Of a stretch of DNA of 44,571 bases, positions 16,653-42,475 are shown piece by piece; positions within the stretch are counted from its first letter, which is position 1; every line of letters starts with the position of its first letter. Origin of the DNA: a virus (lineage: Duplodnaviria; Caudoviricetes); IMG/VR virus record IMGVR_UViG_3300010358_000001, positions 1 to 44,571 of that record, one strand, 5' to 3'. The position numbers were made by a program, and so were the translations under genes. The notes beneath the pieces are model-generated. The model ran no database searches. It saw only the letters and a list, made by a program, of their open reading frames with translations, and had not been told where the DNA came from.

Positions 16653-17341
16653 CAGCCCACTCCTGTCAGCATTCGCACCCCCGTCGAGGCAGGGATGAGT
16701 CCGGTGTTGTAATGCGCTTGCACTCTTGCCTGAGTAAGCGCCGTAGGGTAGATCGCCACCTCGTCCATGAGCACACTGGTGACAGGATTAGCTCCATTAT
16801 CATTTCCAAGAGCAAGCCAATACGCCGTGTTCGTACATGTCGAGTTTGTAACTGTTCCCGTAACATCCACTCCGTCTACATAGACCTTGACTGCCGCTCC
16901 ATTTTTTGTCACCACACAGTGGTGGACATTTTGATCAATGGTGATCGTGGATGCTGCAAGAACCGCTGTTGATGCCCGAACGGCACACAGGTTGTTGTTC
17001 TGGAGGTACATCCCGTATCCACCATTGGGTTTGCTCACAAGATATTGGGCTTGGGTGGCCTGGTCACCTCGTTTGATCCACGCCTCAATTGACCATATGT
17101 CTCCAAGGTCGGTCGTGGCGCTTGTTCCACCCATTCCTGCCGCAGAGGTTGGACTCACTTGCAGAGATCCATCGGGGTTACCCGGCACCAAACTTGGTTG
17201 CGCCCTGACTGGGCTCGTTCCTGCTGCCGACATGTTGTTTCCGTGGCCGGTTAGGTCGGGGAAATTTCCAACAGCTTCTCCAAGATGCCAGAACGCAGCA
17301 GGCGAATCCGCTAGCACCGCTGTCTCGTACGCGGTTGCCAC
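16652..17341 (-). CDS. LamG / concanavalin-A-like domain protein
   Basis: Y..AVLADSP.AFW.LGE, WSIEAWIK, HH.VVT..G..VKVYVDG, MDEVAIY..ALT...V.AHY. Confidence 0.85.
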   Translation of the reverse strand: MATAYETAVLADSPAAFWHLGEAVGNFPDLTGHGNNMSAAGTSPVRAQPSLVPGNPDGSLQVSPTSAAGMGGTSATTDLGDIWSIEAWIKRGDQATQAQYLVSKPNGGYGMYLQNNNLCAVRASTAVLAASTITIDQNVHHCVVTKNGAAVKVYVDGVDVTGTVTNSTCTNTAYWLALGNDNGANPVTSVLMDEVAIYPTALTQARVQAHYNTGLIPASTGVRMLTGVG

Positions 17342-22466: not shown

Positions 22467-24824
22467 TCAGCCGCCCATGCCGCGCTTCTTGCGGGAGCGG
22501 CGCAGCTTGTTGCGGAGCTTGCGCGGGATCCGCGTGCCGGGCGTCTTCGGCGTGGTCTCGGGAAGCTGGCCCTGGCGCAGGTCGATGCCCGCGTTCTTCA
22601 TCATCTGCATGATCTCGTCGGGGCCGGGCGGCGAGATCGGGTGGGCCGCCTTCGCACCCGCCTGCTCGGTCGCCGCTTCCATCATTCCCTTGTACAGCAG
22701 CGGATCAGCTTGCTCTGGACCCATCGGGTGCTTGCCGCGGCCGAGGATCGTTTCCGGCGCCCCGATCTGCATCGGCTTGTTGCGGCCGCCAGGCTTGATG
22801 CGCGCCTGCGGCTCGATCTGCTTGCTGATCGCGCGCCACACGCCACGCACGTTAGGGGCGATGTCGAAGGGACCGAACCCGGGAGCGTCGGGCAGCGGCC
22901 CCTGGTAGCCGAAGCGAGGGCTTTTGCCGGGGTATCCGGCGCCGGTCTGCCCCTGGCGGAGGCGCTGCTGGAACGTCTGTTTGGAGCGCAGCGTCTCGGC
23001 GGGGATCTCGGTGCCCAGACCGCGCTCCTTGGCGACCATCCACATGCGGTTGACGTTGGTCTGGATCGCCTCCATCGCCCCCTCCGGCGACCATCCGGCC
23101 TGCCGCAGCCCGTCGTACATGCGCTTGTAGATCTGCGGCTCGTAGAACTGGGTGGCCTCCGGTGGGCGCCGCTGGTAGTAGGAGATCGGCACGTTCTGGC
23201 GGCTCATCGGGGCGAGGAACTCCTTGGGCGGGACCGGCTCGATGTTGGAATGCGGGCCGGTGCCGAGTGGCTCGCCTTTGCCCTTGCCGCCCCACGAGAT
23301 GAAGCCGGGCGGCAGCGGCTTGCGAGCGGGCCCGGGCCGGAACGCCTCGGGGCCGATCACACCGCCGGGGAAGCGCGCCTCGGGGTTCAGCTGCGGCATC
23401 TTCGCGTACTCGGGGCCGAGTGGCTGCGGGTACAAGCTGGGGTTCTGCCGTAGCTCCAACCAGGGGTCCTGGGAGCTGCCCATGCGGCGCCGCAGGTTGA
23501 GTTCCGTGTTGGCCTGCACGTTGGCGTCGCGGTGCGCTTCGAAGGACTTTCGGAACTGGCTCTCCAGCATCCCGTGGGCTTGCTTCGTCTTGCTTATGAA
23601 GCGGGAGAAGCTCTGCGGCGTGACCTTCTGGCCGGGGTACATGTCGCCGCCCAGAGCGTCCTGTAGCCGCGTCTGCTGGGTGCCGATCTGGTTCGCGAGG
23701 TCGTGCCAGAACCCCATCGTGGCCGGGTCGCCGGTGGTGGACTCCATGAAGCGGGCGTGCGTGTACAGGTGGTTGGCGGCGAGCAGGCTGTTGCGCGCCG
23801 CCGACGCGGCGTCCTTCGCGGCCTGCGGCTGGACCGCCTTGAGCAGCCCGCGAGCGTGCATTTGCCACACCGGGTCGACTCGCTCGTGCAGCGCCTGCGC
23901 CTTCAGCATGTGCTCCTCGGTGGCGCGCGCCCACTGCCCCATGCCTTCCGTGTACTGGCCGGGGGTGATGATCCCCTGCTGCAACCCCGTGGGATGCAGC
24001 CGTTGTTCGGCGGTGCGCAGCGGGTGCGTCAGCCACTGCTTGCCGACCTGCAGCGGTCCCTCCACGGAGCCCACAGCCAGATCGCGCGGCAGCAGGCCCA
24101 GCTGGATGCCGAGGTTGAGGGCGTGGCTGCCGGTGTGCGGCACACCGTGCAGGACGTCGATGCGGCGGCCGGTGGGACGCATCCCCGGAGCGGCGACGCC
24201 GTGCGGAAGGGCGGCACCGAACGCGGTGCGGCGTGGCGGAGATGGGGCGAGGCCCCCGGCGAAGCGGCGGCCGGGTGTGGCCGTCTTGTCCACCGGCTCG
24301 CTGAACCCGGCGCGGGGCAGCAGGCCGCCCAGCGCGTGCTCGAAGCTGAAGGCGAGCGGGAACTCGCGCACGGCGCGCGGCGCCGTCACGTCGCCGAGCC
24401 CGACGTCGCCGCCAGGGCCTTTCTGGCGCAGCGCAGCGAGCGGGTGCTGGGTCGCTTTGTACAAGCTGTACCCGGCCAGCCCCAGACCGGCGGGGATGCG
24501 TGTCTCGGGGAGCAGGAAGGGCGCCGCTTCGGTGCCCGCGATGAGGGTTTTGGCGATCGGCCCGGCGATGTCGGAGGTGGCTTTCGTGCGCTTGCGTAAC
24601 GCAAGGTTGTGTACGACGTCGAGAGGCGTCACCCGCGGCCCGGCGGTGGGCCTCCCGTACGTGGGGGTGGTGTACTGCCCGCCGCCGCGCGCCTGCCCGC
24701 GGGTCTGCTCGGTGACGATGGGAGTCGCTCTATTAGTTACACGCGCGCGCGCGCGAGGGCGCGCGTGTGTACCTCCGTATGTCTGTCCGCCGCCGTGCTC
24801 TCCCATCGGGGCGCGTCGTGCCAC
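22467..24824 (-). CDS. Large basic Pro/Gly/Arg-rich hypothetical protein (possible virion protein)
   Basis: 785-aa ORF; N-terminus resembles that of the 1199-aa ejection protein. Confidence 0.6.
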   Translation of the reverse strand: MARRAPMGEHGGGQTYGGTHARPRARARVTNRATPIVTEQTRGQARGGGQYTTPTYGRPTAGPRVTPLDVVHNLALRKRTKATSDIAGPIAKTLIAGTEAAPFLLPETRIPAGLGLAGYSLYKATQHPLAALRQKGPGGDVGLGDVTAPRAVREFPLAFSFEHALGGLLPRAGFSEPVDKTATPGRRFAGGLAPSPPRRTAFGAALPHGVAAPGMRPTGRRIDVLHGVPHTGSHALNLGIQLGLLPRDLAVGSVEGPLQVGKQWLTHPLRTAEQRLHPTGLQQGIITPGQYTEGMGQWARATEEHMLKAQALHERVDPVWQMHARGLLKAVQPQAAKDAASAARNSLLAANHLYTHARFMESTTGDPATMGFWHDLANQIGTQQTRLQDALGGDMYPGQKVTPQSFSRFISKTKQAHGMLESQFRKSFEAHRDANVQANTELNLRRRMGSSQDPWLELRQNPSLYPQPLGPEYAKMPQLNPEARFPGGVIGPEAFRPGPARKPLPPGFISWGGKGKGEPLGTGPHSNIEPVPPKEFLAPMSRQNVPISYYQRRPPEATQFYEPQIYKRMYDGLRQAGWSPEGAMEAIQTNVNRMWMVAKERGLGTEIPAETLRSKQTFQQRLRQGQTGAGYPGKSPRFGYQGPLPDAPGFGPFDIAPNVRGVWRAISKQIEPQARIKPGGRNKPMQIGAPETILGRGKHPMGPEQADPLLYKGMMEAATEQAGAKAAHPISPPGPDEIMQMMKNAGIDLRQGQLPETTPKTPGTRIPRKLRNKLRRSRKKRGMGG
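24734..24759 (+). repeat. 26-bp inverted repeat, copy A: TAGTTACA(CG)7AGGG
   Basis: Exact reverse complement of 30636-30661. Confidence 0.9.
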
Positions 24825-24839
24825 GGCTTCGGAGAATAG

Positions 24840-24898
24840 AGAGCCCGTCGGTCAACCTGATCCCAAAGGGAGGGAAAAACGATCAGCCGACGGGCTCT
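24840..24898 (-). ncRNA. Candidate anti-RBS stem-loop sRNA
   Basis: 12+6 bp stem; minus-strand loop GTTTTTCCCTCCCTTTGG is complementary to the recurrent CAAAGGGAGGG RBS motif; expression not shown. Confidence 0.5.
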
Positions 24899-24923
24899 GC
24901 TTCGTGAGCTAGATGCTCCGTCC

Positions 24924-25082
24924 CTATCTTAACGCCGGGTCGTGCGCGTGCATCGCCAGGTAGTAGGAGATCGCGTGGCGCACGACGATGGACAGGTTCA
25001 CTTCACGCCGCGCTGCCAGGGCTTCCAGCCGAGCCTTCGTCTGCGGGTCGATCCTCACCGTTACGCTCGTCGAGTCCGCCAT
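24924..25082 (-). CDS. Ribbon-helix-helix (CopG-like) regulator
   Basis: MADSTSVTVRIDPQTKARLEALAARREVNLSIVVRHAISYYL (52 aa, below the ORF-track cutoff); GGAGG upstream. Confidence 0.75.
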   Translation of the reverse strand: MADSTSVTVRIDPQTKARLEALAARREVNLSIVVRHAISYYLAMHAHDPALR

Positions 25083-25338
25083 CGTCATCACCTTCCTCCG
25101 TGGCGAGGCCGGGGATCATCACGTACGCCGAGCCGTGCATCATCACCGTGGCGAGGTCGTCCATCGACAGCTCGTCGAGTTGCGCGTTGTCCTGCGCGAC
25201 GATGACGCTCGCCACGTCGTCGCCGCCCTTGTCGACGGTGCCGTGCTGGGAGACCATCAGGTCCCCCAGCGCGGTGAGCAGCATGTCGTGGTCGGGGATC
25301 TTCCCCGAGTCGAGGATGTAGATGACGTACACCCTCAT
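25003..25338 (-). CDS. Hypothetical protein
   Basis: Start overlaps the upstream stop (ATGA). Confidence 0.5.
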   Translation of the reverse strand: MRVYVIYILDSGKIPDHDMLLTALGDLMVSQHGTVDKGGDDVASVIVAQDNAQLDELSMDDLATVMMHGSAYVMIPGLATEEGDDDGGLDERNGEDRPADEGSAGSPGSAA

Positions 25339-25832
25339 CGCTCCAGCTCGGCGATCGCGTTGTCGATGGCGGCCAGCACCCCCTCCTTCGTGGACAGCTC
25401 ATCGTCATTCATGCGGGCGACGGCTGCAATCACGTGCTCGTTGGAGTGCTGCTCGATGTTGTTGGCCGTGAGGATCAGCCGGGCGGCCCGCTCGATGCGC
25501 TGCGTGGCCGACTTCGTGGCGGGGAAGCCCACCTTGTACGAGGCGGCCTGCAGGGCGCCGCTCATGCACCACGCGGCGGCGTGCGGCGAGTCGGCCTCCA
25601 CAGGATTGCCGCTCTCGTCGACGGCGATCTCGTGGTGCACCCACCCCGCCTCCAGCAGAATGCGCGCCTCGCGCAGGGTCTGCAGGGTGTAGTCGGCATT
25701 CGACTTCTGGTTGGGCTGGCGGCGCGGCGGCCCCTCGCCGGGCTTGCGCCGCACGATCTTGGTGCGTGTGTCCTGCTGCCGCTCCAGGATGGAGAGCAGC
25801 CGGTCAACCGGTGTTGACGCCATTCTTCTCAC
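25335..25832 (-). CDS. DUF6197-like hypothetical protein
   Basis: L..AR.LL..GW...WC..GAL...ND....T...V....D.AI pattern. Confidence 0.6.
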   Translation of the reverse strand: MRRMASTPVDRLLSILERQQDTRTKIVRRKPGEGPPRRQPNQKSNADYTLQTLREARILLEAGWVHHEIAVDESGNPVEADSPHAAAWCMSGALQAASYKVGFPATKSATQRIERAARLILTANNIEQHSNEHVIAAVARMNDDELSTKEGVLAAIDNAIAELER

Positions 25833-26142
25833 CTCTTCGTGTCTTGATTTCGTTCACCCACTGCTTGCGCACTCCGGGGCGCTCCAGGAACGCGACCGGG
25901 TTCTTGTAGATGTCCCCGTATGTGCTGCTGAGCACGAACATCCCGTCGGCGAAGTCGCCGTACAGCTGGCCGAGCACGCAGCGGTTGCCGCACTCCATGT
26001 CCAGCTTGCGCGGGTTCACCTTGTGCGCCCACCCCGGGTACACCTCGTCGAGCATGGCCGCCTTCTCGACCACGGCGCGCTCGTTGGTGGTGGGGGTCTC
26101 CGGCATGAAGCCGGGGATCGTGGGCAGTCGGTACTTCAGCAT
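25804..26142 (-). CDS. Hypothetical protein
   Basis: LDEVYPGW...LDM.....CVLGQLYG motif; GGAGG RBS. Confidence 0.65.
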   Translation of the reverse strand: MLKYRLPTIPGFMPETPTTNERAVVEKAAMLDEVYPGWAHKVNPRKLDMECGNRCVLGQLYGDFADGMFVLSSTYGDIYKNPVAFLERPGVRKQWVNEIKTRRGEKNGVNTG

Positions 26143-26151
26143 TGCTTCCTC

Positions 26152-26445
26152 CTACTCGTTGCTGTTCTGGCCGTAGCGCACGTACACCTTCCCCACGCCG
26201 TCGACGAGGACGGTGCGCACGTCCCACGTGCCGGGCGGCAGCTTGCCGCGCTTGTACGCCTTGCGCAGCAGGCTCCCGGCGTTGGAGGCCGCCTTCGGCT
26301 TCTCCTCGTAGCGCCGGATGCACGCCCAGTAGCCGGGCCGCTGCATGACGATCGACAGCACCTCGGTGTACCACGGGTCGCGACCGGTCGGGCCTGGCCG
26401 CCCCTCGGGCGGCTCTTCCCAGATCACTTCGATACCGTTACTCAC
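26152..26445 (-). CDS. Hypothetical protein
   Basis: WEEPP...RPG.WA...VYVRY motif; strong RBS CAAAGGGAGGAGG. Confidence 0.65.
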   Translation of the reverse strand: MSNGIEVIWEEPPEGRPGPTGRDPWYTEVLSIVMQRPGYWACIRRYEEKPKAASNAGSLLRKAYKRGKLPPGTWDVRTVLVDGVGKVYVRYGQNSNE

Positions 26446-26469
26446 TCTCACCTCCTCCCTTTGTACGAC

Positions 26470-26480
26470 ATTGTACCACA
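26470..26480 (-). promoter_or_regulatory. Extended -10 promoter
   Basis: TGTGGTACAAT (TGnTACAAT) just upstream of the RBS of the 26445 operon. Confidence 0.55.
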
Positions 26481-26697
26481 TTTCCCTAGGGAGAGGAGGA
26501 GGAGGGCCTCGCAACCGCCGGGTAGCCAGGCCCTCCTGTGACCGGAGCCGCCAGGCCCCCGGTCGAACATACATGCTACCCTCCGGGGGTTCCAAGCGCC
26601 AGGACGTGGGGCGTGGGCTACCAGCTGTAACGGCCACTGCCCCGTACCGGGGTGATCCCGTGCGCTCCACGTCCGGCACCACGGTTACTCTCCGCTC

Positions 26698-27954
26698 GTG
26701 CAGTACCAGATCCGCGAGATCGGCTCGGTGGGCAACAGCCGCCGTGTGCTCGTGGACTTGACGGTGACCGACCCGGCGGACTACCAGAACGGGCTGGTCA
26801 TCGACCCGGCGAAGGTCGACCTCGACCACATCGACTCGATCACCCCGGTCGGCATCGACGCCGGTGGGGTGTGCCTGTTCGACCCGTTGGTGAAGAAGGT
26901 GCGCGTGTTCACCGGCGGCGGCGGTGGCTCGCAGGGTGTGCCGGGGCCGCCGGGTGCTGACGGGGCGACCGGTCCTGCGGGGCCGACGGGGGCGCCGGGT
27001 GCGACCGGCCCCCAGGGTCCCCCGGGTCCGGCGGGTGTGAACTCGTCGGTGCCGGGGCCGACCGGTCCGACGGGGCCGCCGGGGCCAATGGGCCCGGTGG
27101 GTCCGACCGGCAGCGCGGGCGCGACGGGACCGGCGGGCGCGGTCACGGTCTTCGAGCAGCCGGGCGACCCGTCGCCGCAGCCCTCGGGGGTGTTATGGAT
27201 CGACACCGACGCGCCGGTCGGCACGGGTATCGCGGGGTTGGAGTGGGAGGATGTGGGGGTTTCGGGGGCGTCGGCGTGGGTGCCGGTCAGCCTGGTCGAC
27301 GCGAAGGGCGACCTGCTTGCGGCGACGGCCGACAACACGGTTGCGCGTCTGCCGGTGGGCACCAACAACCAGGTGTTGACCGCCGACTCGACGCAGGCGA
27401 CCGGCGTGAAGTGGGCGACCCCGGCAGGCGGTGGTGGGGCGCTGACGCTGTTGTCCACGACGACCATCGGCACGGCAGCCAACTTCGACATCACCGGCAT
27501 CGTCGGCACCTACAACGATCTGGTCCTGATGCTGATCGGTCGCTCGTCGTGGACGAGCAACCACGATGGCCTCCAGATCCAGTTCAACGGTGACAGCGGC
27601 AGCAACTACTCGCGGCAGGACGTGCGCGGCACGGGCACCAGCGCTCTGGCTGCCCAGGGGATCGCCTTGTCCAGCATTCAGACTCCCGATGCGCTTCCCA
27701 CCGTCAACGCGCTCGCGAACAGCTTCGGGATCGTTGAGATCGTCATTCCCGGCTACGCATCTACCGCGTGGTCGAAGACCCTACTGATCAAGGGTGGGCA
27801 TCTTGAGGGCCAGTCGGGCGGCGAGATGACCACGTTCCAGACAACCGGCCACTGGAACAACACCGCCGCCGTCACCCGCGTCACGTTGCAGCCGGTAAAC
27901 ACTCCCTTCACGTTCGTGACCGGTTCCCAGCTTCGCGTCTACGGGAGAACGTGA
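26698..27954 (+). CDS. Collagen-repeat tail fibre / receptor-binding protein
   Basis: Gly-X-Y repeats; AKGDLL.AT....[21 protein letters not shown] motif; beta-rich C-domain. Confidence 0.8.
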
Positions 27955-28616
27955 TGCCGTCCTTTCCGACGACGACGCACATCCAGTTCGGCGACGCGTT
28001 GAACGTGACGGATCTGGGGTCGGGCCAGATTCGTGTGGACGGGCAGGGTTCGGTGGGTCCCACGGGGGCGACGGGGCCGCAGGGTCCTGCTGGCCCGGCG
28101 GGCACGGGCGGCATGGTGAAGCTTTTCGACTCGTTGCTGGGGGCGGACGCGGCGTCGATCGACACGGGCGCGGGCGGCGTGGCGGCGGGGTACGCGTGTT
28201 TGGAGGTGCGCATGTTTGTGCGCACCGACGAGGCGTCGGACCCCGGCCAGCTGTACGTGCGGTTGAACAACGACTCGACGGCGATCTACGATTGGCAGCG
28301 GGCTGGTGGGTCGAACGTGACGGCGATCGCGTCCACGATCAACGGCGACACGGGGTGGGCGTGTTTGTGTGCGTCGTCGAGCATCGCCAACAACTGGGGG
28401 GCGGTCACGATGTCGATCCCCAATTACGACAACACGCTGTCCTGGAAGGCAGCGACGTGGGTGGACGCGTACAACGTGTCGTCGGGCTCGGGCCGCGCGT
28501 TCGTGCGGGGCGGCTTGTACCGGTCGGCTTCGGCGGTCAGCCGCATCGCGGTGACGTGCTTGAACCCGGCGCAGAAGCTGCGGTCTGGGTCACGGATGAC
28601 GGTGTGGGGGGCGTGA
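27951..28616 (+). CDS. Short collagen tail-fibre paralog
   Basis: Gly-X-Y repeats; C-domain aligns with that of 26698..27954. Confidence 0.75.
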
Positions 28617-28621
28617 ACTAG

Positions 28622-29884
28622 GTGCCGAACCAGATTCGGGTGCGCACCGCGGCGGGGTGGACGGACTTGATCTACCCGGGTCCGCAGGGTCCGGCGGGGC
28701 CGCAGGGTGCGGTGGGTGCCACTGGTCCGGCGGGTCCGACGGGCGCCACGGGGGCGACGGGCTCGCAGGGGCCGACGGGGCCGCAGGGCGCGCAGGGTTT
28801 GCCCGGCTCGACGGGCGCAACGGGCGCGACGGGCGCAACGGGTCCGGCTGGTCCTGGTGTGCCGACGGGCGGCGCGACGGGGCAGGTGTTGCAGAAGACG
28901 TCGGGCACCGACTTCGCGACGGGGTGGGCGACGGCAGCACCCGCTGCGGACGTGCAGACGTTCACTGCCAACGGGACGTGGACGAAGCCCGCCAACGCGA
29001 CACAGGTGCGCGTGTTCGCCATCGGCGGCGGCGGTGGCGGCGGGCGCGGTGAACTCAGCGCCACAGCCACTCAGGGGGCTGCCGGTGGTGGTGGCGGCGG
29101 GCTGGCGGACCGAACGTTCCGCGCCTCCGATCTGCCTGCCACAGTTGCCGTGGGCGTCGGCCAAGGCGGTCTCGGTGGAACCGCTGGGAGCGGACAGGGC
29201 GGCACGAACAGCACGTTCGGCACGCTGCTCGTAGCTGGTGGTGGAGGTGGCGGCTTCGCAGCGACGGCGGGCAACGCGGGATCGGGCGGTGCCGGTGGTG
29301 GCTACGGGAGCGCCGGGGCTGACTTCGTGACGACGACGAACACCAGTCCTCTCGGCGGCGGTCTTGGTGGTTCTCAGCAGCTTGTTGCTGGTGTCAGCGC
29401 GAACCAACTCAATGCGTCTAGCCCGTGGGGCGGCGGCGGCAGTTGCTGGGGTCGGGGCGGCGGGCACGGTGGGGGTGGTGGTGGCGGCGGCAGCAGCGCA
29501 ACTGGTAACGCTGGCTACGCGGGCGGCAACTCACTTGGTCTCGCGGGCGGTGGCGGCGGCTGCGGTGGGTGCAACAGCGCGGGTCCAGCCGGGTTCGTCG
29601 GCGGTCTCGGCGGTCGCTCTGCGTGTGATTTCACCGTTGCCCCACAGGGCGGTGGAGCGGCAGCCGGTGTCGCCGGAGCCAACGGGGCTGGCCCCTCCGT
29701 CGGTCTCGGAGGCGATGGCGGCGGGGGAGGTGGGGGGAACTCTGGCTCTGGGGTGGGCGGCAGGGGCGGAGACGGTGGTTCGTACGGCGGGGGCGGAGGT
29801 GGCGGCGGCGCGAGTGGATCGACCGGCACTCGCGGCATGGGCGGCAACGGCGCCCCCGGCATCGTCGTCGTCATCTCATGGTGA
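28622..29884 (+). CDS. Collagen plus glycine-rich tail fibre protein
   Basis: Gly-X-Y repeats; [10 protein letters not shown]...[10 protein letters not shown]...[13 protein letters not shown]. Confidence 0.8.
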
Positions 29885-29894
29885 GGAGGATCCG

Positions 29895-30062
29895 GTGGAC
29901 GTTGTGAGCGACACCCTGGCGGGCACACAGCCGGAGCTTGAGGATCCGCCGCCGGTGATCGAGCTGAACGCGCCGTTGCCCAGTTCGCTGACGGAGGTGT
30001 CGGGCACTGATCTACTTGGGCACGTGATCCGCGTGGAGATCATCGTGTACACAACGGACTGA
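29895..30062 (+). CDS. Small hypothetical protein
   Basis: GAGGAGG RBS then GTG; 55 aa. Confidence 0.45.
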   Translation: MDVVSDTLAGTQPELEDPPPVIELNAPLPSSLTEVSGTDLLGHVIRVEIIVYTTD

Positions 30063-30292
30063 TGCCCGGGGTGATGCAGCCGTCGTTGGTGCGGTCGCGC
30101 AAGCTGTTCGCGCTGACGATGAACCTGGTGTGCTTCAGGTGCGGCCGCCACCCGGCGGAGCTTGAGGGCGACCGTTGGCGGGCGACGGGCTATTCGAAGG
30201 TCCACGGGCACTGGGCGGTGTGCGAGGAGTGCTACCTCGCCGATCGCGCGGCCCGTGCAGCTTCTCCATCCACTGCTGCTGACGGCAGTTAG
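30062..30292 (+). CDS. Small zinc-finger-like hypothetical protein
   Basis: CFRC...CEEC; overlaps the convergent ORF. Confidence 0.4.
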   Translation: MPGVMQPSLVRSRKLFALTMNLVCFRCGRHPAELEGDRWRATGYSKVHGHWAVCEECYLADRAARAASPSTAADGS

Positions 30293-30476
30293 CGCACCAC
30301 TGGGAGGCGGTGCCTTTGCTGTTGCCGACGGTGGGGCGCCCGCAGTTTTTGCATTCCCCGGCGTACAGGGTGTGTTTGCGCTCGGTGACCTTGGCGATCG
30401 TGCGCTGCCTGTTCTCGGGGCGGGCGTACCATTCGCGCGCGTACGCCCGCCGCTTCTCGGGGTCTTTCCTCGGCAC
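30135..30476 (-). CDS. Basic zinc-finger hypothetical protein
   Basis: MPRKDPEKRRAY.REWY N-terminus; CKNC...CANC. Confidence 0.55.
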   Translation of the reverse strand: MPRKDPEKRRAYAREWYARPENRQRTIAKVTERKHTLYAGECKNCGRPTVGNSKGTASQWCANCRQQQWMEKLHGPRDRRGSTPRTPPSARGPSNSPSPANGRPQAPPGGGRT

Positions 30477-31220
30477 CTACAGTCCCCGCCGGAACCGCTT
30501 GTGCTGAGTCTGGCCCTGGGCGGCCTGCTGGAGCAGCTGCTGGATGTGTTCGCTCATCTGCGCGTGGTAGCTCTTGGTGCTGCTCCCCGGGGTGGGCGCC
30601 CACGTCGTGGTGGGGATCGGCACTTTCCGGGTCGTCCCTCGCGCGCGCGCGCGTGTAACTAGAGAGGCGGGCAGTTTCTCGACGGGCGTGCCCGGGTAGT
30701 TGTCGGCCAGTGTGGGCACCAGTGCGGCGGGTGCGTACAGGGTTTTGGGGTACGCGTACTGGCAGCGGAACCCGTCGTCGGCGTGCACCACTTTCCCCCA
30801 CCCGTTGATCTGTCCGTACACGGTGCCTTCCATGCAGTAGTCGATGGTGCGCGCCGCGTAGATGCCGCACCGGCAGTTCTCGTCGGGGCTCGTGTGCTGG
30901 GTGGTGGTGACGCGCAGCTCCCACATGAACCCGGGGGGCGGCACGCTGCGCGGGGTGCGCACGTTGAGGAGCCCGGGGTCGGGGCCGGGCGACACGTCGG
31001 CGTCGATCCTGCTGTCGGAGCCGGACCCGTCGACGGGCACCAGGTCCCAGTAGTGGTGCAGCTGCGGCCCCGGCCCCCCTTTGCAGCGGGCCTCCATGCG
31101 CTCCCCCGGCAGCCACAGCACGTGCCGGGTGCACGCCTGCAATGTCGGCCTGCCGTCGTGGATCGCCACCTGCCAGCTTCTCCAGCCGACGATCGGCTCG
31201 ATGCTGTCGGGCACGATCAT
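30477..31220 (-). CDS. Conserved-looking hypothetical protein
   Basis: PIVGWRSW...P...CRCGIYA...V.G....WGKVV....GFR..YA motif. Confidence 0.7.
   Translation of the reverse strand: MIVPDSIEPIVGWRSWQVAIHDGRPTLQACTRHVLWLPGERMEARCKGGPGPQLHHYWDLVPVDGSGSDSRIDADVSPGPDPGLLNVRTPRSVPPPGFMWELRVTTTQHTSPDENCRCGIYAARTIDYCMEGTVYGQINGWGKVVHADDGFRCQYAYPKTLYAPAALVPTLADNYPGTPVEKLPASLVTRARARGTTRKVPIPTTTWAPTPGSSTKSYHAQMSEHIQQLLQQAAQGQTQHKRFRRGL
30636..30661 (-). repeat. 26-bp inverted repeat, copy B
   Basis: CCCT(CG)7TGTAACTA. Confidence 0.9.
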
Positions 31221-31327
31221 GCGCCCACCCCCGTCGAGCCGGACCCGCACCCGGCGGCGACGAGCAGCAGCCAACCGCTGGCGATCACCGCGACGGCGAT
31301 GAGCAGCGTCCACGCGAACCGGGTCAT
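31217..31327 (-). CDS. 36-aa membrane peptide
   Basis: MTRFAWTLLIAVAVIASGWLLLVAAG; coupled at both ends. Confidence 0.5.
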   Translation of the reverse strand: MTRFAWTLLIAVAVIASGWLLLVAAGCGSGSTGVGA

Positions 31328-31881
31328 GCCCCACCCCAGCTTGCCGAGCTGGTGCCGTTCGCGTTCACGGTGATGCTGACGCGCGGGTACTTGTACGAGC
31401 AGTAGTTGATGCCGAGCGCCCCCAGGCACACGTGGAACTTGCCTTGCGTCCACACCGTTTCTGTGCTGGCCCCCGTCATCCCCGTGCAGAACTCGTTCGT
31501 GCAGTTGCCCCCGATGTTGCCGTCGAACGCCCACCCCGCGTGCGTGTCGGCGGGCCACCGGTCGCGGTGCATGTACGTCACCTTCAGCCCGTTCCAGCAC
31601 CAGCGGGCCTGCTCGTTGTACGTGAACACCGTCAACCCGAGCAGATTCGAGCGGGTCGCCCGCGCCCACCGGGTCCTGCAGCGTCCCGCCGCCGCGTCCG
31701 GGGAGTAGCCGTACAAGCCGGGGCTCTCCGTGAGCGTCCCCGTCGCCCCGCTTCCCGTCCCACAATCCACGTCCTTGAAGTAGCAGCCGCCCCCGTCCGA
31801 GGGGATGTTCGGCTCCGTACCCCCGGCAGCGACCGGAACCACGGCCAGCGCCACCACCATCACACACAAGCTGAGTCTCAC
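31324..31881 (-). CDS. Secreted Cys-rich protein
   Basis: Signal-peptide-like N-terminus, several Cys, beta-rich; GGAGG RBS. Confidence 0.65.
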   Translation of the reverse strand: MRLSLCVMVVALAVVPVAAGGTEPNIPSDGGGCYFKDVDCGTGSGATGTLTESPGLYGYSPDAAAGRCRTRWARATRSNLLGLTVFTYNEQARWCWNGLKVTYMHRDRWPADTHAGWAFDGNIGGNCTNEFCTGMTGASTETVWTQGKFHVCLGALGINYCSYKYPRVSITVNANGTSSASWGGA

Positions 31882-31962
31882 CTCAAAGCCTCCGATACTA
31901 GGTAAACCACGCTCAACACCCCGACGCTCGCGACGAGCGTCCACGCGAACCGGTGCCCCCAA

Positions 31963-32079
31963 TCAGGCGGGGACGAGCGGCTTCGCCTCGACTTCCTTCT
32001 CAGGCTCCCGCTCCCTGCCGGGAACAGGCTCCTCGACGGGCTCGATGACCGTCGTCTCACGCTCCGTGCCGATCTCCAC
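31963..32079 (-). CDS. 38-aa acidic peptide
   Basis: MEIGTERETTVIEPVEEPVPGREREPEKEVEAKPLVPA; purine-rich RBS. Confidence 0.45.
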   Translation of the reverse strand: MEIGTERETTVIEPVEEPVPGREREPEKEVEAKPLVPA

Positions 32080-32311
32080 GAACCTCACCCTCCTCCGTCA
32101 CGACCGCCGTCATGCCCATCACGTTCAGCATCCCCTCCGCCGCCGCCAGCACATGCTCAGCCATCGTCCTCAGCGTCTCCATCTCCGACCGCAACGCCTG
32201 ATTCTCCGAGCGCAAGAACAGCAGCTCCTGATAATCAGCGTGCTGCTGACCGATCTCGTCGCGCAACGCCTGAATCTCAGCCAGCGCGTCCCGCTCCTCC
32301 AAGAGTCTCAC
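32057..32311 (-). CDS. Coiled-coil hypothetical protein
   Basis: 84 aa; AAGGAGG adjacent to the start. Confidence 0.55.
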   Translation of the reverse strand: MRLLEERDALAEIQALRDEIGQQHADYQELLFLRSENQALRSEMETLRTMAEHVLAAAEGMLNVMGMTAVVTEEGEVRGDRHGA

Positions 32312-32323
32312 CTCCTTGGTTCA

Positions 32324-32334
32324 AGTATATCACA
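32324..32334 (-). promoter_or_regulatory. Extended -10 promoter for the leftward arm
   Basis: TGTGATATACT upstream of AAGGAGG. Confidence 0.55.
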
Positions 32335-33099
32335 GGTTCGTATCCCGTCCGGCCCAACCCCCATCATTGACTGAACGCCCACGAGCCGGTGGTCCAGGAT
32401 CGAGCTACCTGGTCGCACCGTGCACGGCTCGTTCACAAGCTGGGGGGGACAACAGGGGGGGATGTGCACAGGCAGTCCGCGTGGGTCGCCCGCTGCGCGG
32501 GCCCCCGACCCACGAACAGCCGCACCCCCCGCTGGTTCAAAACCCCCCGTTATCGGAGACCCGGTGGACATGGGGCCGGGGGTTCAAAACTCCCCGAAAA
32601 CCACAATCTCCCGTAGATGGGGCCCTCGCTACGCTCGCTCGGCAGCCCTGGGCCCACGATCACCCCCGGGGGGGTCAGGCCGAGCGTTTATGCGCTCTTA
32701 TGCGCGAGTTCACCCGAGAGGATGGTCGAATCCGGTTCGGCCGGGGACGTCTACGCGCACCCGGGCAGGCGTTGAGTGCCTACGTACTGCCTACGCTCCT
32801 TTGCCTAGGCATTGCCTAAGCAAACCGGGGGAATAGATCGGGCCTCTCGTTCGTTGCACCCTGTGCGGGCCGCACCGACGCAAGGGTGCGACCTCGCCGC
32901 CGGGTAGGAATTCCTCGGCGTTAAAGACAGGGCTAGAACCCCGCGCAATTCCTCTACTGATTATCGGGAGAATCGCTCCGAAGATCGTCCCTCTCTCCCT
33001 CGGGAGTTTCCTGGGAATTAGCGCAAGAGTTAGGTTCCCTCTTGCGGTGATTCTCGGAGAATTCCCTCTGGGAACGCTACAAGAAAGGACGGTACCAAA

Positions 33100-33693
33100 A
33101 TGCCTGCAAGGGCGAAGGCAACTCCGGTTGGCAACACGAAGGGGAACGGTGCGACGATTCCTCAGCGCAAACCACCGGCGATTAGCTACACGGATCACCC
33201 GACGCTCGCCCCGTCGGAGGAGTTGACGAAATTCGTGACGGATCTCGTTGCGAATCTCGTCGCCGCGAAGGTGCCGGGCGAGGAGGCGCGGAAGATCGCG
33301 CTCCAGACGGCGATCGACAGCGGCAAGTTCAACGCAAAGCCCGTCGCAAAGGCGGCCGCAACTCCCGCGAAAACTGTCACGCGAACGCTCAAGGGAATTC
33401 GCGCGGACGAGCGGGTCGCTGTTGCCGCTTCCGAGGCGGTCAACGAGAACCGGGACGCGGCGGAAATCCGCGGCTCTATTGTCGGCGCAATCGAAGCTCT
33501 CAAGTGGAACCTTAACGAGCTGGGATTGCCCGTCAGAATTCCGGCGGTCAATGAGGACGGAACTCCCGTCGTCGACGAGGCCACCGGAGAGCCGATGGAG
33601 ATGCTCACCGAGATCGGCGAGCACTTGCAAGCGGTCGTTGCTCCGGCAGTTGCGGAGATCGATCGGCGGATGAAGTCCGACATCGTGATCTAA
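33100..33693 (+). CDS. First gene of the early arm, hypothetical
   Basis: GAAAGGA RBS; 197 aa; followed by a terminator. Confidence 0.75.
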   Translation: MPARAKATPVGNTKGNGATIPQRKPPAISYTDHPTLAPSEELTKFVTDLVANLVAAKVPGEEARKIALQTAIDSGKFNAKPVAKAAATPAKTVTRTLKGIRADERVAVAASEAVNENRDAAEIRGSIVGAIEALKWNLNELGLPVRIPAVNEDGTPVVDEATGEPMEMLTEIGEHLQAVVAPAVAEIDRRMKSDIVI

Positions 33694-33706
33694 TCCCTCG
33701 CGAATC

Positions 33707-33746
33707 GCCCCTCGCAATTCCCTCCGGGGAGTTGCGGGGGGCTTTT
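33707..33746 (+). terminator. Rho-independent terminator
   Basis: GCCCCTCGCAATTCCC / GGGAGTTGCGGGGGGC stem followed by TTTT. Confidence 0.8.
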
Positions 33747-33833
33747 CATTGGGAATTGGGTTTGCAGGACGGGCAACGGCCGTTGCCAGAACCGGCAGCT
33801 GGTCGTTGCCCGGCGGGGCGACAGGAGGAGAGT

Positions 33834-33859
33834 CGGTCAAGTCTGTCCGGTACAGAACG
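33834..33859 (+). promoter_or_regulatory. Repeated operator/promoter-like motif, copy 1
   Basis: CGGTCAAGTCTGT-N5-ACAGAACG; near-identical copy at 34492. Confidence 0.55.
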
Positions 33860-33930
33860 CTCGCGCGATCGTCGCGAACGTTGTGTAACGGTCGGAATCC
33901 TCTGGCCGTGTGAGGAAGGGACGGTACAAA

Positions 33931-34203
33931 ATGCAACTCGGATCCGAGCACTACGATCCTGAGTTTATCGCACCCAGCGTTCATCGTGAGCGCTGGGAAT
34001 ACCAACGGGCGCTGGTTCTGGACAGCGACCCTCCGCCCGGTCTTGCGGTGCTCGCCAAAATCAAGTACCGCAAAGGCGAAAAGCTCACGCCCAAGACGCA
34101 AACCGCGTCGAAGGCTGTCGGCCGTGCCTCCGCGAAACTGCAACCTGTCGCCAGGCGATTCCTCGCCCAGCGGCGGCGCGACAGGATCCGGAACGCACGA
34201 TGA
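33931..34203 (+). CDS. Hypothetical protein
   Basis: Leader GGACGGTACAAAATG shared with the 33100 gene. Confidence 0.6.
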   Translation: MQLGSEHYDPEFIAPSVHRERWEYQRALVLDSDPPPGLAVLAKIKYRKGEKLTPKTQTASKAVGRASAKLQPVARRFLAQRRRDRIRNAR

Positions 34204-34391
34204 GCAACTCGTTCAAAAAGCCCGCGCGCTCCCGGCAAGCGATAAGCCGCGGGCTCAAACAGAAACTCTCCGCGTACGAAAAAGGGTCGATCACCGGCCT
34301 CGAGATGCGCGGAATCCTGATCGCCGCCGCCGCCGACGTGCGGCGGGAAGCGTTCGCCTCCATGAGGCAGCTTCCCCTGGCGATCAAATAA
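34200..34391 (+). CDS. Hypothetical protein
   Basis: ATGA coupling; 63 aa. Confidence 0.55.
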   Translation: MSNSFKKPARSRQAISRGLKQKLSAYEKGSITGLEMRGILIAAAADVRREAFASMRQLPLAIK

Positions 34392-34423
34392 CCGCCGAAC
34401 CGCGAGGGATTCGGCGGAACGCA

Positions 34424-34477
34424 GCACAAGGCCCGGCACCGCGCTGACGGGAGCGGCGCGGTGCTGGGCCTTTGTGC
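34424..34477 (+). terminator. Long hairpin (terminator or processing site)
   Basis: GCACAAGGCCCGGCACCGCGC / GCGCGGTGCTGGGCCTTTGTGC; preceded by a smaller hairpin at 34392-34417. Confidence 0.55.
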
Positions 34478-34491
34478 GCGGGCCGGGCAGC

Positions 34492-34516
34492 CGGTCAAGT
34501 CTGTGGAAACAGAACG
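34492..34516 (+). promoter_or_regulatory. Repeated operator/promoter-like motif, copy 2
   Basis: CGGTCAAGTCTGT-N4-ACAGAACG. Confidence 0.55.
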
Positions 34517-34586
34517 AGGGGCGTTCGCGGTGCGTGCAACCCGTGGCGCCCCTCGTGGTGTTTCCACAACACAAAGGGAGAGGACA

Positions 34587-34982
34587 ATGACACCGATTCC
34601 GCTGGTCGAACTCGACGACACCGTGGAGGTCGAGCCCACGCAGGAAACGCTGCAGGAAGTCGAGCAGGAAACGAGCTTCCTCGGCAACGTGCTGAAGCTC
34701 GTCAACAAAATCCGTGGCAAGCACGGCAAGGACGCGCTGTACGAACTGCCGCAAGGCGTGATCAGCAGCGGCTCGCAATGCGTGCTCGCCAGGGCGTTCG
34801 TCGACTTCTCGCCCGACCACAGCGTGTGGGTCGACGGCCAATCCGTCGACTGGTACGACGCGAACGGCAACTTCCGCTCGTTCGGCTTCTACGGCGAATT
34901 TGAGGAACTGACTATCTTCGTCGACCGCTTCGACGACGGCGAATACCCGGAGCTGACGACCTACGAGGAGGAGGAACTGTGA
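34587..34982 (+). CDS. Acidic hypothetical protein
   Basis: CAAAGGGAG RBS then ATG. Confidence 0.7.
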   Translation: MTPIPLVELDDTVEVEPTQETLQEVEQETSFLGNVLKLVNKIRGKHGKDALYELPQGVISSGSQCVLARAFVDFSPDHSVWVDGQSVDWYDANGNFRSFGFYGEFEELTIFVDRFDDGEYPELTTYEEEEL

Positions 34983-35236
34983 CCTCGTGGATTCTCCTCG
35001 GCCTACTGCTCGTCACCGCGCTGTTCAACGCGTGGCTGGTGTACGAAAACAACGACATGCGCGACCGCATGGCACGCGCCACCGTGCTGCTCGACGACCT
35101 CGACGCGATGCTCGTCGAAATGCAGAACAACGTGGGACGCGTCGACCACCTGAACGAGCAGCTGATTACCGAAAACCAACGGCTGCTCGAAAGCAACCTG
35201 TCGCTGTCAGGCGTCGAATGGAGGGCACGGCCGTGA
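34979..35236 (+). CDS. Membrane-anchored coiled-coil protein
   Basis: N-terminal hydrophobic helix. Confidence 0.6.
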   Translation: MTSWILLGLLLVTALFNAWLVYENNDMRDRMARATVLLDDLDAMLVEMQNNVGRVDHLNEQLITENQRLLESNLSLSGVEWRARP

Positions 35237-35442
35237 AACCAACACGGATCGTGCACACCATCGACGACGACCTGCGCAACTACAGGGACGGCAAACCCAG
35301 CAGCCTGTCGCCGGGAACGTTGCCCCGCGACAGGCCCGACCGAACGGAACGCATCCAATGGATGCGCGACTGGGCGAAGCAACACAAACGCGACGTCAGC
35401 AAAGGAATACTGAACAAGCGCAGCAAGATCGTCCGCAGGTGA
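35233..35442 (+). CDS. Basic hypothetical protein
   Basis: GTGA coupling. Confidence 0.5.
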   Translation: MKPTRIVHTIDDDLRNYRDGKPSSLSPGTLPRDRPDRTERIQWMRDWAKQHKRDVSKGILNKRSKIVRR

Positions 35443-35512
35443 TTCCTGCCGGTAGCGCCCAGCAATGGGCGCCTCCGGCAGCAATTGTGCTGCACAAAGG
35501 GAGGGAAAGACA

Positions 35513-35845
35513 ATGGACGAGAAATACCGCACCACCGTTCTGCGCTCCGAACTGAAGCCCGAACTCGGGCTCAGCGACGCCGAGGTCGCGCTGCAAGACG
35601 CGATCAACGACGGCACGATCAGCGACGTCATCCACGGCAACGAGTACGACCCCGAGGATTTCCTCGTCGTCGAACTCGACTCGCTCGACATGGCCGTCGT
35701 CGTGCCCGCCATCGAAGCGGTGATCCTCGGCTCCTCCGTCATGGACGACACGCTGCGCGAAGGCATCGCAAGGCGGCTCGCCGGAAAGCTGTCACGAACG
35801 ATCCGCGAACAGAAGTTCATCATCGTCGAGGACGACGATGCATAG
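35513..35845 (+). CDS. Acidic hypothetical protein
   Basis: CAAAGGGAGGGAAA RBS. Confidence 0.7.
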   Translation: MDEKYRTTVLRSELKPELGLSDAEVALQDAINDGTISDVIHGNEYDPEDFLVVELDSLDMAVVVPAIEAVILGSSVMDDTLREGIARRLAGKLSRTIREQKFIIVEDDDA

Positions 35846-36020
35846 CCACATCGTGCTGATGGGCAACCTGCACGACGGCTACGTCGCCGTCGGCGTGTTC
35901 GGAAACCGCAAAACCGCCGAACTGTGGGTCAACCAGCAGAAAGCCGACGGCTCCGAACTCGGCTACGAGTTCGTGCCGATCGTCAAGCCCGCGCTGCACG
36001 GCACCAAAGTCGCTGCGTGA
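35838..36020 (+). CDS. Hypothetical protein
   Basis: 60 aa; overlaps the upstream stop. Confidence 0.55.
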   Translation: MHSHIVLMGNLHDGYVAVGVFGNRKTAELWVNQQKADGSELGYEFVPIVKPALHGTKVAA

Positions 36021-36085
36021 TGCTGCCGAGGACAGCCCGAAAAGGGCTGTCCCGGGGAACATCAACAGCCGACAAGGGAGGGAAA

Positions 36086-36283
36086 ATGAACGCCATGTGG
36101 CAGGAGATCGACGCGCGGCAAACCGACGAGGGCATCCTCCGCTGGGAGATCGACCTCGTGGCCGGAGTGCACCGCGTCGTGCTCAACGCCCACGACGAAA
36201 CTGAGCACACGCTCGGCGACGGCGTGGACGCCACAACTGCACGCAACCTCTACGACCACCCGTTCGTGGGGTGGAAGCGATGA
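36086..36283 (+). CDS. Hypothetical protein
   Basis: CAAGGGAGGGAAA RBS. Confidence 0.65.
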   Translation: MNAMWQEIDARQTDEGILRWEIDLVAGVHRVVLNAHDETEHTLGDGVDATTARNLYDHPFVGWKR

Positions 36284-36678
36284 GGCTGCGCTGCGAGTGC
36301 GGCAGGGAACTGCACGAGCACTTCCAGGGCACCGAATTCTGCATGGTGCCCGGCTCGACGTGCGAGAAAGTCAGGCACACGCTGCCCGACCTCGCGCCCA
36401 CCGAGCGCTACCTCGCACAGTGGTACGAGTCCAACGACTCGATGCTCGGCCCCACCGCGCACACAGACGACGACGGGCCGTGGGCACCCGAAATCGAAAA
36501 CGACGCCGAGTTCACGAAGGACTGGAAGAAGGCGCTGAAGCGAGCCCAGGGATGGGCGAGCGGCGGCGGTCACTTCAAGACCTGCCGCGTCGTCGTCGTC
36601 GACGTCGACACGCTGGAACTCGTCGACGACGAGCCCGTCGTGTGGGAGTCCAACCGGCGGATCACCGTCGAGGTGTAG
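36280..36678 (+). CDS. Hypothetical protein with a Cys/His-rich N-terminus
   Basis: ATGA coupling; CEC...H..H...C...C. Confidence 0.6.
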   Translation: MRLRCECGRELHEHFQGTEFCMVPGSTCEKVRHTLPDLAPTERYLAQWYESNDSMLGPTAHTDDDGPWAPEIENDAEFTKDWKKALKRAQGWASGGGHFKTCRVVVVDVDTLELVDDEPVVWESNRRITVEV

Positions 36679-36751
36679 GGATCGTTGCCCATTGCAGCCG
36701 GAAACGGCTGCATGGGGGAGCGATTCTGCTCCAAACCAAAGGGAGGGAGAA

Positions 36752-38200: not shown

Positions 38201-38279
38201 CGGCTAGTACCACGGGTAGCGCCCGGCAACGGGCGCCTCCCGGGGCACTCGCCCCGCACCAAAACCAAAGGGAGGGACT

Positions 38280-38681
38280 GTGGAACTACAGGAAATCCTG
38301 GAGCGGCTCAAAAAGGTCGAATCCAAAGTCGACGACCTGTTCGCCGACGTCGACAGCGCACCGTCCACGTCCGGCGCGTACGACACCCTGAGCGACGTTT
38401 ACGGCTACATCGAAAGCGCGCAAGGGGAGTTGCAATACGCGCTCGATCAGGTCTCCACCGCCCAAGGCGATCTGGAGAACCTGCCCGACGTGTACGGCCA
38501 AGTCGAAGAGTTGATGAATGAGGTCGCAGAGCTGCGGATCGAACTGGAAAAAGCGCTGCTCCAACGAACGACACCCGCGCTTCCGGCCGGGAAACCCACC
38601 AACAACATCAACAGCCCGGAACCGGAGCAAATCTCCACACCGACCAACGACGCGTTCGCCGCGCTCACCAAGCGTGGCTAG
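38280..38681 (+). CDS. Coiled-coil hypothetical protein
   Basis: CCAAAGGGAGGG RBS; heptad-like acidic sequence. Confidence 0.7.
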   Translation: MELQEILERLKKVESKVDDLFADVDSAPSTSGAYDTLSDVYGYIESAQGELQYALDQVSTAQGDLENLPDVYGQVEELMNEVAELRIELEKALLQRTTPALPAGKPTNNINSPEPEQISTPTNDAFAALTKRG

Positions 38682-38868
38682 GCGGCTAACAACCGGCACC
38701 GTCGTGGTCATCGTGGCGACGGTCGTCGTCCTCTACTACGTCATGTTGTGGGCTTCATACACACGGCCGCGGTAGGGAATTCCGCGTAGCCCGCAGCAGA
38801 CGAAAGCCAGGGGGGCCGGGTCTATTCCCTTCCGCCCGGCCCCCCGCCCCAAAGGGAGGGAAACCAGA

Positions 38869-39474
38869 ATGGACATGAACCAGCTGTTCGGCGAGCCGTG
38901 CACCGGCCCGGACGATCCGAACCACGGCGAGCATTGCAAGGAGCACCCGATGGTCGAGATCGTGCAGGGCGCGCTCGCCAAGGGGCCGCTGTGCCAGGTC
39001 ATGCCGCTCAACTTCTCCTCGCTGGCCGCGTACATGCAGGCCACCCTGGAGGAGAACGACGGCGACGTCGGCGTCACGACGGAGAAGCTGCTCAAGGAGG
39101 CCACGTTCGTGCTCACACAGATGACGGCCCTGATGGGCAATCCGCTGCTCGTGCTCGCGCTGTTCTCCAGCGCGATGAGTGCGTTCGGCATCGCCTCCGA
39201 GCTGATCCTCGGCTCCGAGGAGACGATCCTCGACCAGGCTCGCGATTACGTCGACTCCACCGGCGGCACGCCGGAGGAGGAGCGGGCGGCGCACGACCAG
39301 CTGACCGCCGTGATGTACGCGATGCTCCGCGGCAACGAGGCGATCAAGTTCCACCCGGCCGCCGTGGAGAAGTACGAGGCGATCCTCACCGAGGTCGGAC
39401 TCAACGACGAGCCGACGATCAGCGCGGAGCAGGCCAACGAGCTGCGCAAGCTCGTGGAGGGAAACGAGGAGTGA
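38869..39474 (+). CDS. Hypothetical protein
   Basis: CCCAAAGGGAGGGAAA RBS; 201 aa. Confidence 0.7.
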   Translation: MDMNQLFGEPCTGPDDPNHGEHCKEHPMVEIVQGALAKGPLCQVMPLNFSSLAAYMQATLEENDGDVGVTTEKLLKEATFVLTQMTALMGNPLLVLALFSSAMSAFGIASELILGSEETILDQARDYVDSTGGTPEEERAAHDQLTAVMYAMLRGNEAIKFHPAAVEKYEAILTEVGLNDEPTISAEQANELRKLVEGNEE

Positions 39475-40662: not shown

Positions 40663-40673
40663 TGGGAGGCAAA

Positions 40674-42333: not shown

Positions 42334-42475
42334 AGTATGCGGTCGAATTGGAACACGAAACTTCATCGTGTTAAACACGAACGGTCACACCGACAAACCG
42401 TACGTACGCTGCGCAACAATTACGGCGTGTGTGACGAGGCAGATGAAGAACACTCGCAAAGGGAGGGCGACATGA
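42308..42475 (+). CDS. Small zinc-finger protein
   Basis: CEVCG...C...C. Confidence 0.5.
   Translation: MTEVRMVCEVCGRIGTRNFIVLNTNGHTDKPYVRCATITACVTRQMKNTRKGRAT

Follow-up and report, generated by a model that had tools for sequence, protein, structure and literature searches.

The window, by which we mean the whole stretch of 44,571 nucleotides analysed here, is a circular contig of a soil phage with a terminal overlap of 123 nt and a GC content of about 66%. Its minus strand carries, from 24.8 to 2.6 kb, the genes for a P22-like portal, an SU10-type adaptor and terminase as well as the major head genes. Tail-fibre genes occupy 26.7–29.9 kb of the plus strand, and small non-structural genes together with an AAA ATPase gene lie at 33–39.5 kb of the same strand. 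The phage is podo-like, and its host is likely actinobacterial, because the nearest cultured relatives of the ATPase are Gordonia and Mycobacterium phages (36–40% identity).

Between a short minus-strand operon, whose last gene encodes a ribbon-helix-helix (RHH) protein, and the late operon's first gene lies a long hairpin. The features of this border, and one related site near the tail-fibre genes, are as follows.

22467..24824, minus strand: first late-operon gene, 779–785 aa, followed by TerL, portal and major head; no Pfam or PHROG family
24830..24838, minus strand: possible late −10 TATTCT(CCG), just 3′ of the stem, with GTG 24824 8 nt further on
24833..24919, minus strand: candidate sRNA of about 87 nt with putative ends, comprising a 5′ hairpin, a linker and the long hairpin with the anti-RBS loop; fold of −41.4 kcal/mol
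24840..24898, minus strand: main hairpin, a 12-bp outer stem and an inner stem with two possible registers, from folding
24863..24880, minus strand: seed GUUUUUCCCUCCCUUUGG, antisense to the ribosome-binding-site (RBS) tag, with predicted apical loop UCCCUUU, from folding and matching
24906..24918, minus strand: predicted small 5′ hairpin GAGC-AUCUA-GCUC
24924..25091, minus strand: RHH gene, last of the 26445–24924 operon (PF01402, E = 1.4e-07)
24926..24931, minus strand: possible −10 TAAGAT from a hexamer search, overlapping the RHH stop codon; putative start at about 24919
26686..26694, plus strand: second TAYTCTCCG, a putative −10, with GTG 26698 of the first tail-fibre gene 6 nt further on

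The arms, their coordinates and the 18-nt loop (24863–24880) described in an earlier sequence-only reading proved accurate, the 12-bp and 6-bp arms being set apart by a 5-nt bulge. In that register the stem contains no G–U pairs, and the loop is enclosed equally on both strands (−30.8 versus −30.1 kcal/mol). The open 18-nt loop is not the lowest-energy fold of the minus strand (−30.8 kcal/mol, probability 0.001), as that strand is predicted to prefer a shifted register with a 7-nt apical UCCCUUU loop and a GUUUU internal loop (−34.6 kcal/mol, probability 0.46); opening the full seed is predicted to cost about 4 kcal/mol. The folding z-score was −3.2 for 101 nt, and −4.5 for the 87-nt minus-strand candidate versus −3.6 for the plus strand. 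The enclosing stem reached −32.5 kcal/mol. Unrelated viral contigs, mostly of lower GC content, contain the 16-mer 65 times, and for none of these 65 was the enclosing stem better than −17.4. The candidate RNA is predicted to be a two-hairpin fold with a single seed. Rfam gave no match at E ≤ 1 in the window, and the 6C/B11 and c4 models had no match.

A strict sigma-70 scan of 24000–43900 called no promoters, so the promoter calls given here rest on the hexamer search. TAAGAT has two copies genome-wide, one preceding the stem by 28 nt and one ahead of gene 43613, and we take it as a hint only, because TAnnnT occurs about once per kb on each strand. It would possibly start a stand-alone RNA of about 87 nt that includes the small 5′ hairpin. 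The origin from the 3′ UTR of the RHH operon that had been proposed at first stays an equal candidate but is not unique, since TAAGAT could give such a separate RNA. On the other side of the stem, TAYTCT is found at only two sites (24830..24838 and 26686), both times as TAYTCTCCG; because both lie 6–8 nt before a GTG, they suggest leaderless late promoters, which would place the hairpin just upstream of a late start.

Several further elements were noted around the window. CTCCCTAGG is present at 26484–26491 and 41284–41290, ahead of the −10 sequences TACAAT (gene 26445) and TATACT (gene 41327), and the two genes may share it as a middle-promoter element. At 24734–24759 and 30636–30661 lie the two copies of a perfect 26-nt inverted repeat with a (CG)7 core, and between them are the hairpin, the RHH operon and, in the opposite orientation, the tail-fibre genes; a motif resembling this repeat occurs about 2.9 kb upstream of TerL in locus L102 and at the TerL end in locus L090. 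The repeats might bind a protein, belong to an origin or mark the two ends of a segment that can invert, and no inversion joint was present at them in the contigs of one DNA run, possibly the window's own source. CAAGTCTGT has five copies, all on the plus strand (33838, 34496, 39706, 39724 and 40224), four of them intergenic, including a tandem pair before the lysin gene, and one within the lysin gene; it is a possible operator or promoter element. The stretch 32700–33090, ahead of the first early gene, is AT-richer intergenic DNA with repeated CCTA(G/C) words and is a possible origin or genome end.

The shared ribosome-binding tag and its predicted pairing with the loop

The motif CAAAGGGAG occurs exactly eight times in the window, seven times in RBSs, 6–14 nt ahead of the start codon, and once in the hairpin loop. 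Under an order-3 Markov model, 0.14 exact copies would be expected in the whole genome and 0.019 within its intergenic DNA. Relaxing the search to one mismatch gives 10 copies, a number no higher than chance would produce (mean 6.84; 17 of 100 shuffles gave as many). The exact copies precede the starts at 34587, 35513, 36752, 38280, 38869 and 42472 and, on the minus strand, 26445, while gene 36086 has the variant CAAGGGAGGG instead, a genome-wide count that bears out the original claim of a motif at about eight gene starts. The longest perfect matches between the loop copy and the eight sites measure 9, 14, 13, 13, 13, 16, 11 and 10 nt, and the 16-nt perfect match that had been reported at 38869 is correct by this computation.

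26454..26463, minus strand: tag in the RBS of gene 26445 (10-nt match), fused to canonical GGAGGTGAG and directly after the −10 TGTGGTACAAT
34572..34580, plus strand: tag in the RBS of gene 34587 (9-nt match)
35495..35508, plus strand: tag in the RBS of gene 35513 (14-nt match)
36074..36086, plus strand: variant tag in the RBS of gene 36086 (13-nt match)
36736..36748, plus strand: tag in the RBS of AAA ATPase gene 36752 (13 nt perfect, 18 with G–U)
38265..38277, plus strand: tag in the RBS of gene 38280 (13-nt match)
38848..38863, plus strand: tag in the RBS of gene 38869 (16-nt match)
42457..42467, plus strand: tag in the RBS of gene 42472 (11-nt match)

The tag is thus an asymmetric conserved motif a few nucleotides 5′ of starts and is confined to non-structural genes, with no copy before the head, tail or lysis genes of the window. 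It keeps a conserved 5′ CAAA and is joined at 26445 to a separate GGAGGTGAG; because the canonical GGAGGTGAG is separately present there, the tag appears to be more than a good RBS. No ATG, GTG or TTG follows the plus-strand copy in the loop, in agreement with the initial view that this copy is not itself an RBS. We also weighed a peptide with the rare start ACG downstream of the plus-strand copy but rejected it, because plus-strand gene context is absent at the site. Short GC hairpins, two of them near-duplicates, lie upstream of tagged RBSs (35451–35498, 38215–38262, 36030–36053 and 36692–36712) and are possible processing or stabilizing stems of early messages.

When all curated starts were ranked by duplex energy with the loop, the tag genes took the top 8 of 62 places. 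After opening costs were included, seven tag genes were the top 7 of 60, with net energies from −18.3 to −6.6 kcal/mol; ATPase gene 36752 had the best value (−18.3), and gene 26445 ranked tenth of 60 (net −2.9 kcal/mol). The suggestion that the RNA would also silence its own operon is therefore weak. As expected of a trans-acting anti-RBS sRNA, the candidate is predicted to have an accessible seed complementary to several RBSs. This ranking and the recurrence with other tags described below support, with moderate confidence, the proposal of a multi-target anti-RBS RNA.

Hairpins with tag copies in other phages

The exact loop pattern had no matches in viral contigs and three unrelated, stemless matches in genome contigs. 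TerL relatives are 45–66% identical, except the window's own record (L083) and locus L084 (91%), which stops about 1.5 kb upstream of TerL, before reaching the hairpin. L084 also holds a 63% identical part of the 779–785-aa late protein, which has no other homolog among 8000 scored candidates except itself. BLAST of the hairpin region against the fetched loci returned no homolog, a search by major head protein found no cultured relative, a profile search gave relatives of about 50% identity without DNA context, and the contigs of one DNA run (possibly the window's own source) contained no sequence variant within the hairpin. Because no relative covering the window hairpin was found in these searches, we examined the design in other phages.

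Eighty loci were fetched through the ATPase; 39 of these records, taken whole or in large part, and seven cluster K right arms were analysed. Genes were called with a simple script, the commonest 9-mers upstream of starts were taken as tags, and spare intergenic tag copies were scored for an enclosing stem against random intergenic sites. Many of the loci bear private RBS tags, such as AAAGGAGAAC, AAGGATCAGC, AAGGGGGAAC and GGAGAGGA. Of 27 tag-bearing genomes, 6 had a copy of their own tag in a strong hairpin, compared with 12 of 918 foreign-tag pairs, a count that leaves out the window and six extra cluster K phages; a first pass with the window included gave 5 of 25 genomes and 10 of 646 foreign-tag pairs. 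One of the six own matches (G030) is a palindromic repeat rather than an RBS and was dropped afterwards. In about 20 of the 27 genomes the exact 9-mer search found no hairpin with a tag copy. Enrichment per spare copy was weak (5 of 30 own versus 13 of 147), which we ascribe to the many spare copies that are probably overlooked or degenerate RBSs.

Orientation separated the copies, in a split that was post hoc and chosen once the data had been seen. Spare own copies whose antisense strand is read by the flanking gene were in hairpins in six of eight cases (null p ≤ 0.10), compared with 1 of 22 own copies oriented otherwise and 11 of 43 foreign copies (6/8 versus 11/43, p = 0.012). At a stricter cut of 0.05 the counts were 4/8 versus 7/43 (p = 0.055). 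Among genomes with a GGAGAGG tag, a 7-mer search chosen by eye found such hairpins in five of six (G009, G010, G011, G033 and G039), G033 and G039 having no valid null for hairpins of this 7-mer; the stems of G010 and G011 differ around an identical loop. In G009–G011 and G032 the loop comes last in a tagged operon and faces a convergent gene, and in G005, G033 and G039 it lies inside the early region near the downstream gene. G001 has a sense copy on the transcribed strand, and the analogous hairpin of G008 is followed by a U-run. The G011 hairpin had no match among cultured phages, and Rfam scans of eight other loci returned only a tRNA.

Three of these genomes showed features of their own. 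In G008 (L157:13190–13320), two same-strand hairpins lie 70 nt apart; the loop of the first contains the tag AAGAGAGAG, and that of the second, a terminator-like hairpin, carries the antisense sequence. The pair could possibly form kissing loops in one RNA. In G013 (L177 near 16990–17030; L053:19488–19507) the arms of a hairpin are the tag and its complement, which could hide the RBS in cis. The intergenic DNA of G030 (L295–L297) contains dozens of copies of the palindrome AGGGCCCT.

Cluster K mycobacteriophages carry a comparable motif, the start-associated sequence (SAS). The available text of its 2011 description reports one reversed, start-less copy in four phages and leaves open whether RNA or protein binds (PMC3203893), and that of a 2024 study still calls the function of SAS not known (PMC11373665). 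The reversed SAS copy in Anaya is the loop of a hairpin, and this region occurs in about 190 mycobacteriophage records. Ten of ten aligned phages share the loop CCUCCUAUCC without change, 98% of the cells in the alignment of the stem are paired, and two pairs have changed on both sides, with G–U pairs on the anti-SAS strand. The covariation score was reached by 4 of 500 shuffles; because the aligned phages are close relatives (87% identity), for which such counts are not probabilities, the test is modest. Stem covariation around a conserved loop was thus seen in cluster K analogues; homologs of the window hairpin were not found in the searches described above.

The Adephagia loop is found between genes 92 and 93, 106 nt past a conserved TAGACT, in the interval where, in the accessible part of an RNA-seq study, late transcription appears to begin (PMC11373665). 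Across 21 cluster K phages, 11 have the exact anti-SAS loop, four a C/U-rich variant and six a different loop. The SAS was unchanged in all six right arms checked among the ten phages without the exact loop, so loop and tag do not track each other in cluster K. The early-to-late switch inferred at first from the window has, by analogy, a parallel in the position of the Adephagia loop; the 10 of 21 cluster K phages that lack the exact loop speak against its having a universal role. Two accounts of the variant loop were rejected: the SAS is not changed in Ximenita, Amgine and Shandong1, which carry it, and a match to the repressor RBS fits Ximenita only, SirPhilip having that RBS without the loop. 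Separately, a conserved multi-hairpin RNA follows TAGACT in 13 of 13 aligned cluster K phages (L181:39770–39990, alignment A3); this late-start region is annotated as nothing or as a hypothetical ORF, and five such loci scanned gave no Rfam match.

Interpretation, alternatives and known systems

Our preferred reading, drawn from sequence and held with moderate confidence as the probable one, is that the hairpin is part of a trans-acting anti-RBS RNA that would damp the early genes, probably as late expression begins. A minus-strand RNA would be made at the early/late border, either starting at a promoter with the TAAGAT hexamer or forming the 3′ end of the RHH operon's transcript. Its UCCCUUU loop would pair first with the tagged leaders, after which the weak inner stem would open and the pairing could grow to 9–16 bp. 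The RNA would then cover the Shine–Dalgarno sequence and prevent initiation on the eight tagged non-structural genes as a group, with the repression probably timed to the shift toward late expression.

The hairpin might instead be a terminator, or a processing or stabilizing stem, of the RHH operon, its loop incidental or a relic and the tag a strong RBS spread by cassette shuffling. It lies directly past a stop codon and directly before a possible late promoter, as such a stem would, and the analogous G008 hairpin has its U-run; the window hairpin, however, has no U-run and was not among the 21 terminator-like sites called. Actinobacterial terminators can lack U-runs. Early leaders do share duplicated sequence (35451 and 38215), consistent with shuffling, and foreign tags are fairly often found in 3′-end hairpins (the 11 of 43 above). 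Against an incidental or relic loop, an exact intergenic CAAAGGGAG is expected only 0.019 times, a relic RBS should share the orientation of the flanking genes whereas the window copy is reversed, and the loop is invariant in the ten cluster K phages while the stem varies. We regard this explanation as unlikely. The loop could also pair with the tag and yet serve early negative feedback with the RHH operon, or guide cleavage or stabilization, rather than act as a timing switch. The RHH operon has a sigma-70-like extended −10 and would bear the hairpin at its 3′ end, and the loops that end tagged operons (G009–G011 and G032) or lie inside early regions (G005, G033 and G039) fit feedback. The window hairpin, in contrast, lies exactly at the late-operon border, and the Adephagia loop lies in the interval where, in the part of the study available, late transcription appears to start (PMC11373665), which leaves feedback or guidance very unlikely.

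The tag may otherwise be a protein site, for a translational repressor, a RegB-like nuclease or a DNA-binding regulator such as the RHH protein, with the hairpin copy a plus-strand decoy or a late-promoter operator. The RHH gene adjoins the hairpin, the stem extends into the upstream portion of the possible late promoter, G001 has its sense copy on the transcribed strand, and SAS persists in cluster K phages without the loop. Protein binding is one of the two options left open in the available text of the 2011 SAS paper (PMC3203893), and T4 RegB, as described in the accessible part of its source, inactivates early mRNAs at the RBS sequence GGAG (PMC3014915). On the other hand, the 62 window proteins gave no match to RegB-, RegA- or CsrA-like families, the consensus GGAGRAYARAA is not in the window, and a DNA site would not need a covarying stem with G–U pairs. 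As to a decoy, no plus-strand gene reads into the hairpin site, and only 1 of 22 non-antisense spare copies lies in a hairpin. We disfavour the plus-strand decoy for a CsrA-like protein, offered as an alternative in the sequence-only reading, given that both neighbouring genes run on the minus strand and that hairpin copies in other phages are mostly antisense. A protein site of any of these kinds seems to us quite unlikely.

Beyond the window, we offer one broader proposal tentatively, with our doubts outweighing our confidence: many unrelated actinobacterial phages may independently have built an address and a key, that is, a private early-RBS tag and an anti-tag hairpin RNA that would end the regulon at late onset while sparing late messages and most host messages. 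SAS would be such an address and the reversed SAS in the late leader its key. Reading the hairpin in this way may explain the long-unexplained start tags of related phages, and the reversed SAS, as a conserved loop in the late-start interval, makes cluster K phages a concrete test case. If the proposal is true, a phage would time a whole regulon by RNA only, as a counterpart of the T4 protein RegB; early regulons could be read by rule from sequence alone; and natural orthogonal RBS/anti-RBS pairs would be available for gene control in high-GC bacteria.

Among bacterial RNAs, staphylococcal RsaE and RNAIII use an unpaired UCCC seed against Shine–Dalgarno sequences, but they are host regulators of host genes and have no private address tag. 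The mycobacterial sRNA 6C (B11) is alike in that, in the available text, its C-rich loops bind many mRNAs without a chaperone (PMC6486639); unlike the window RNA, which would use one loop against a phage-private tag on the phage's own genes, it is host-encoded and has several C-rich loops. The c4 RNA of P1 and P7, as presented in the accessible part of its source, is likewise a phage RNA whose single-stranded parts pair near RBSs of phage mRNA, but it has three stems, is cut by RNase P, uses seeds a′ and b′ and acts in immunity and lysogeny (PMC5320573), whereas the window RNA would have one seed and about eight targets in separate transcription units. T4 RegB offers a parallel in logic, the available text describing early mRNAs inactivated together through an RBS motif, which is proposed to ease the passage from the early to the later phase (PMC3014915); it is a protein nuclease, however, and the window has neither its consensus nor a detected homolog.

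The nearest likeness is to SAS of cluster K and of Microbacterium cluster EF, which in the accessible portions of the literature is, like the window tag, a non-palindromic, over-conserved RBS motif of non-structural genes (PMC3203893, PMC7302621, PMC11373665). Both have one reversed, start-less copy, which for SAS is a hairpin loop in 11 cluster K phages. Unlike cluster K SAS, the window has CAAAGGGAGGG and not GGGATAGGAGCCC, and the phages are unrelated; no ESAS, a 17-bp inverted repeat, is among the repeats listed for the window, and the tag does not belong to cluster K SAS proper. The parts of these SAS papers that were available give SAS no function and make no mention of a hairpin (PMC3203893, PMC7302621, PMC11373665). 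In a literature search of incomplete coverage, including the available text of a 2025 review of phage sRNAs (PMC12197685), we found no description of a phage that makes an RNA complementary to an RBS tag shared by its own genes. Such hairpins may be present, unnamed, in the supplements of a catalogue that lists 10,006 structured RNAs of viruses (PMC10690425). Together, these comparisons place the candidate, with moderate confidence, among the loop-seeded anti-RBS RNAs, as a member of none of the named systems compared.
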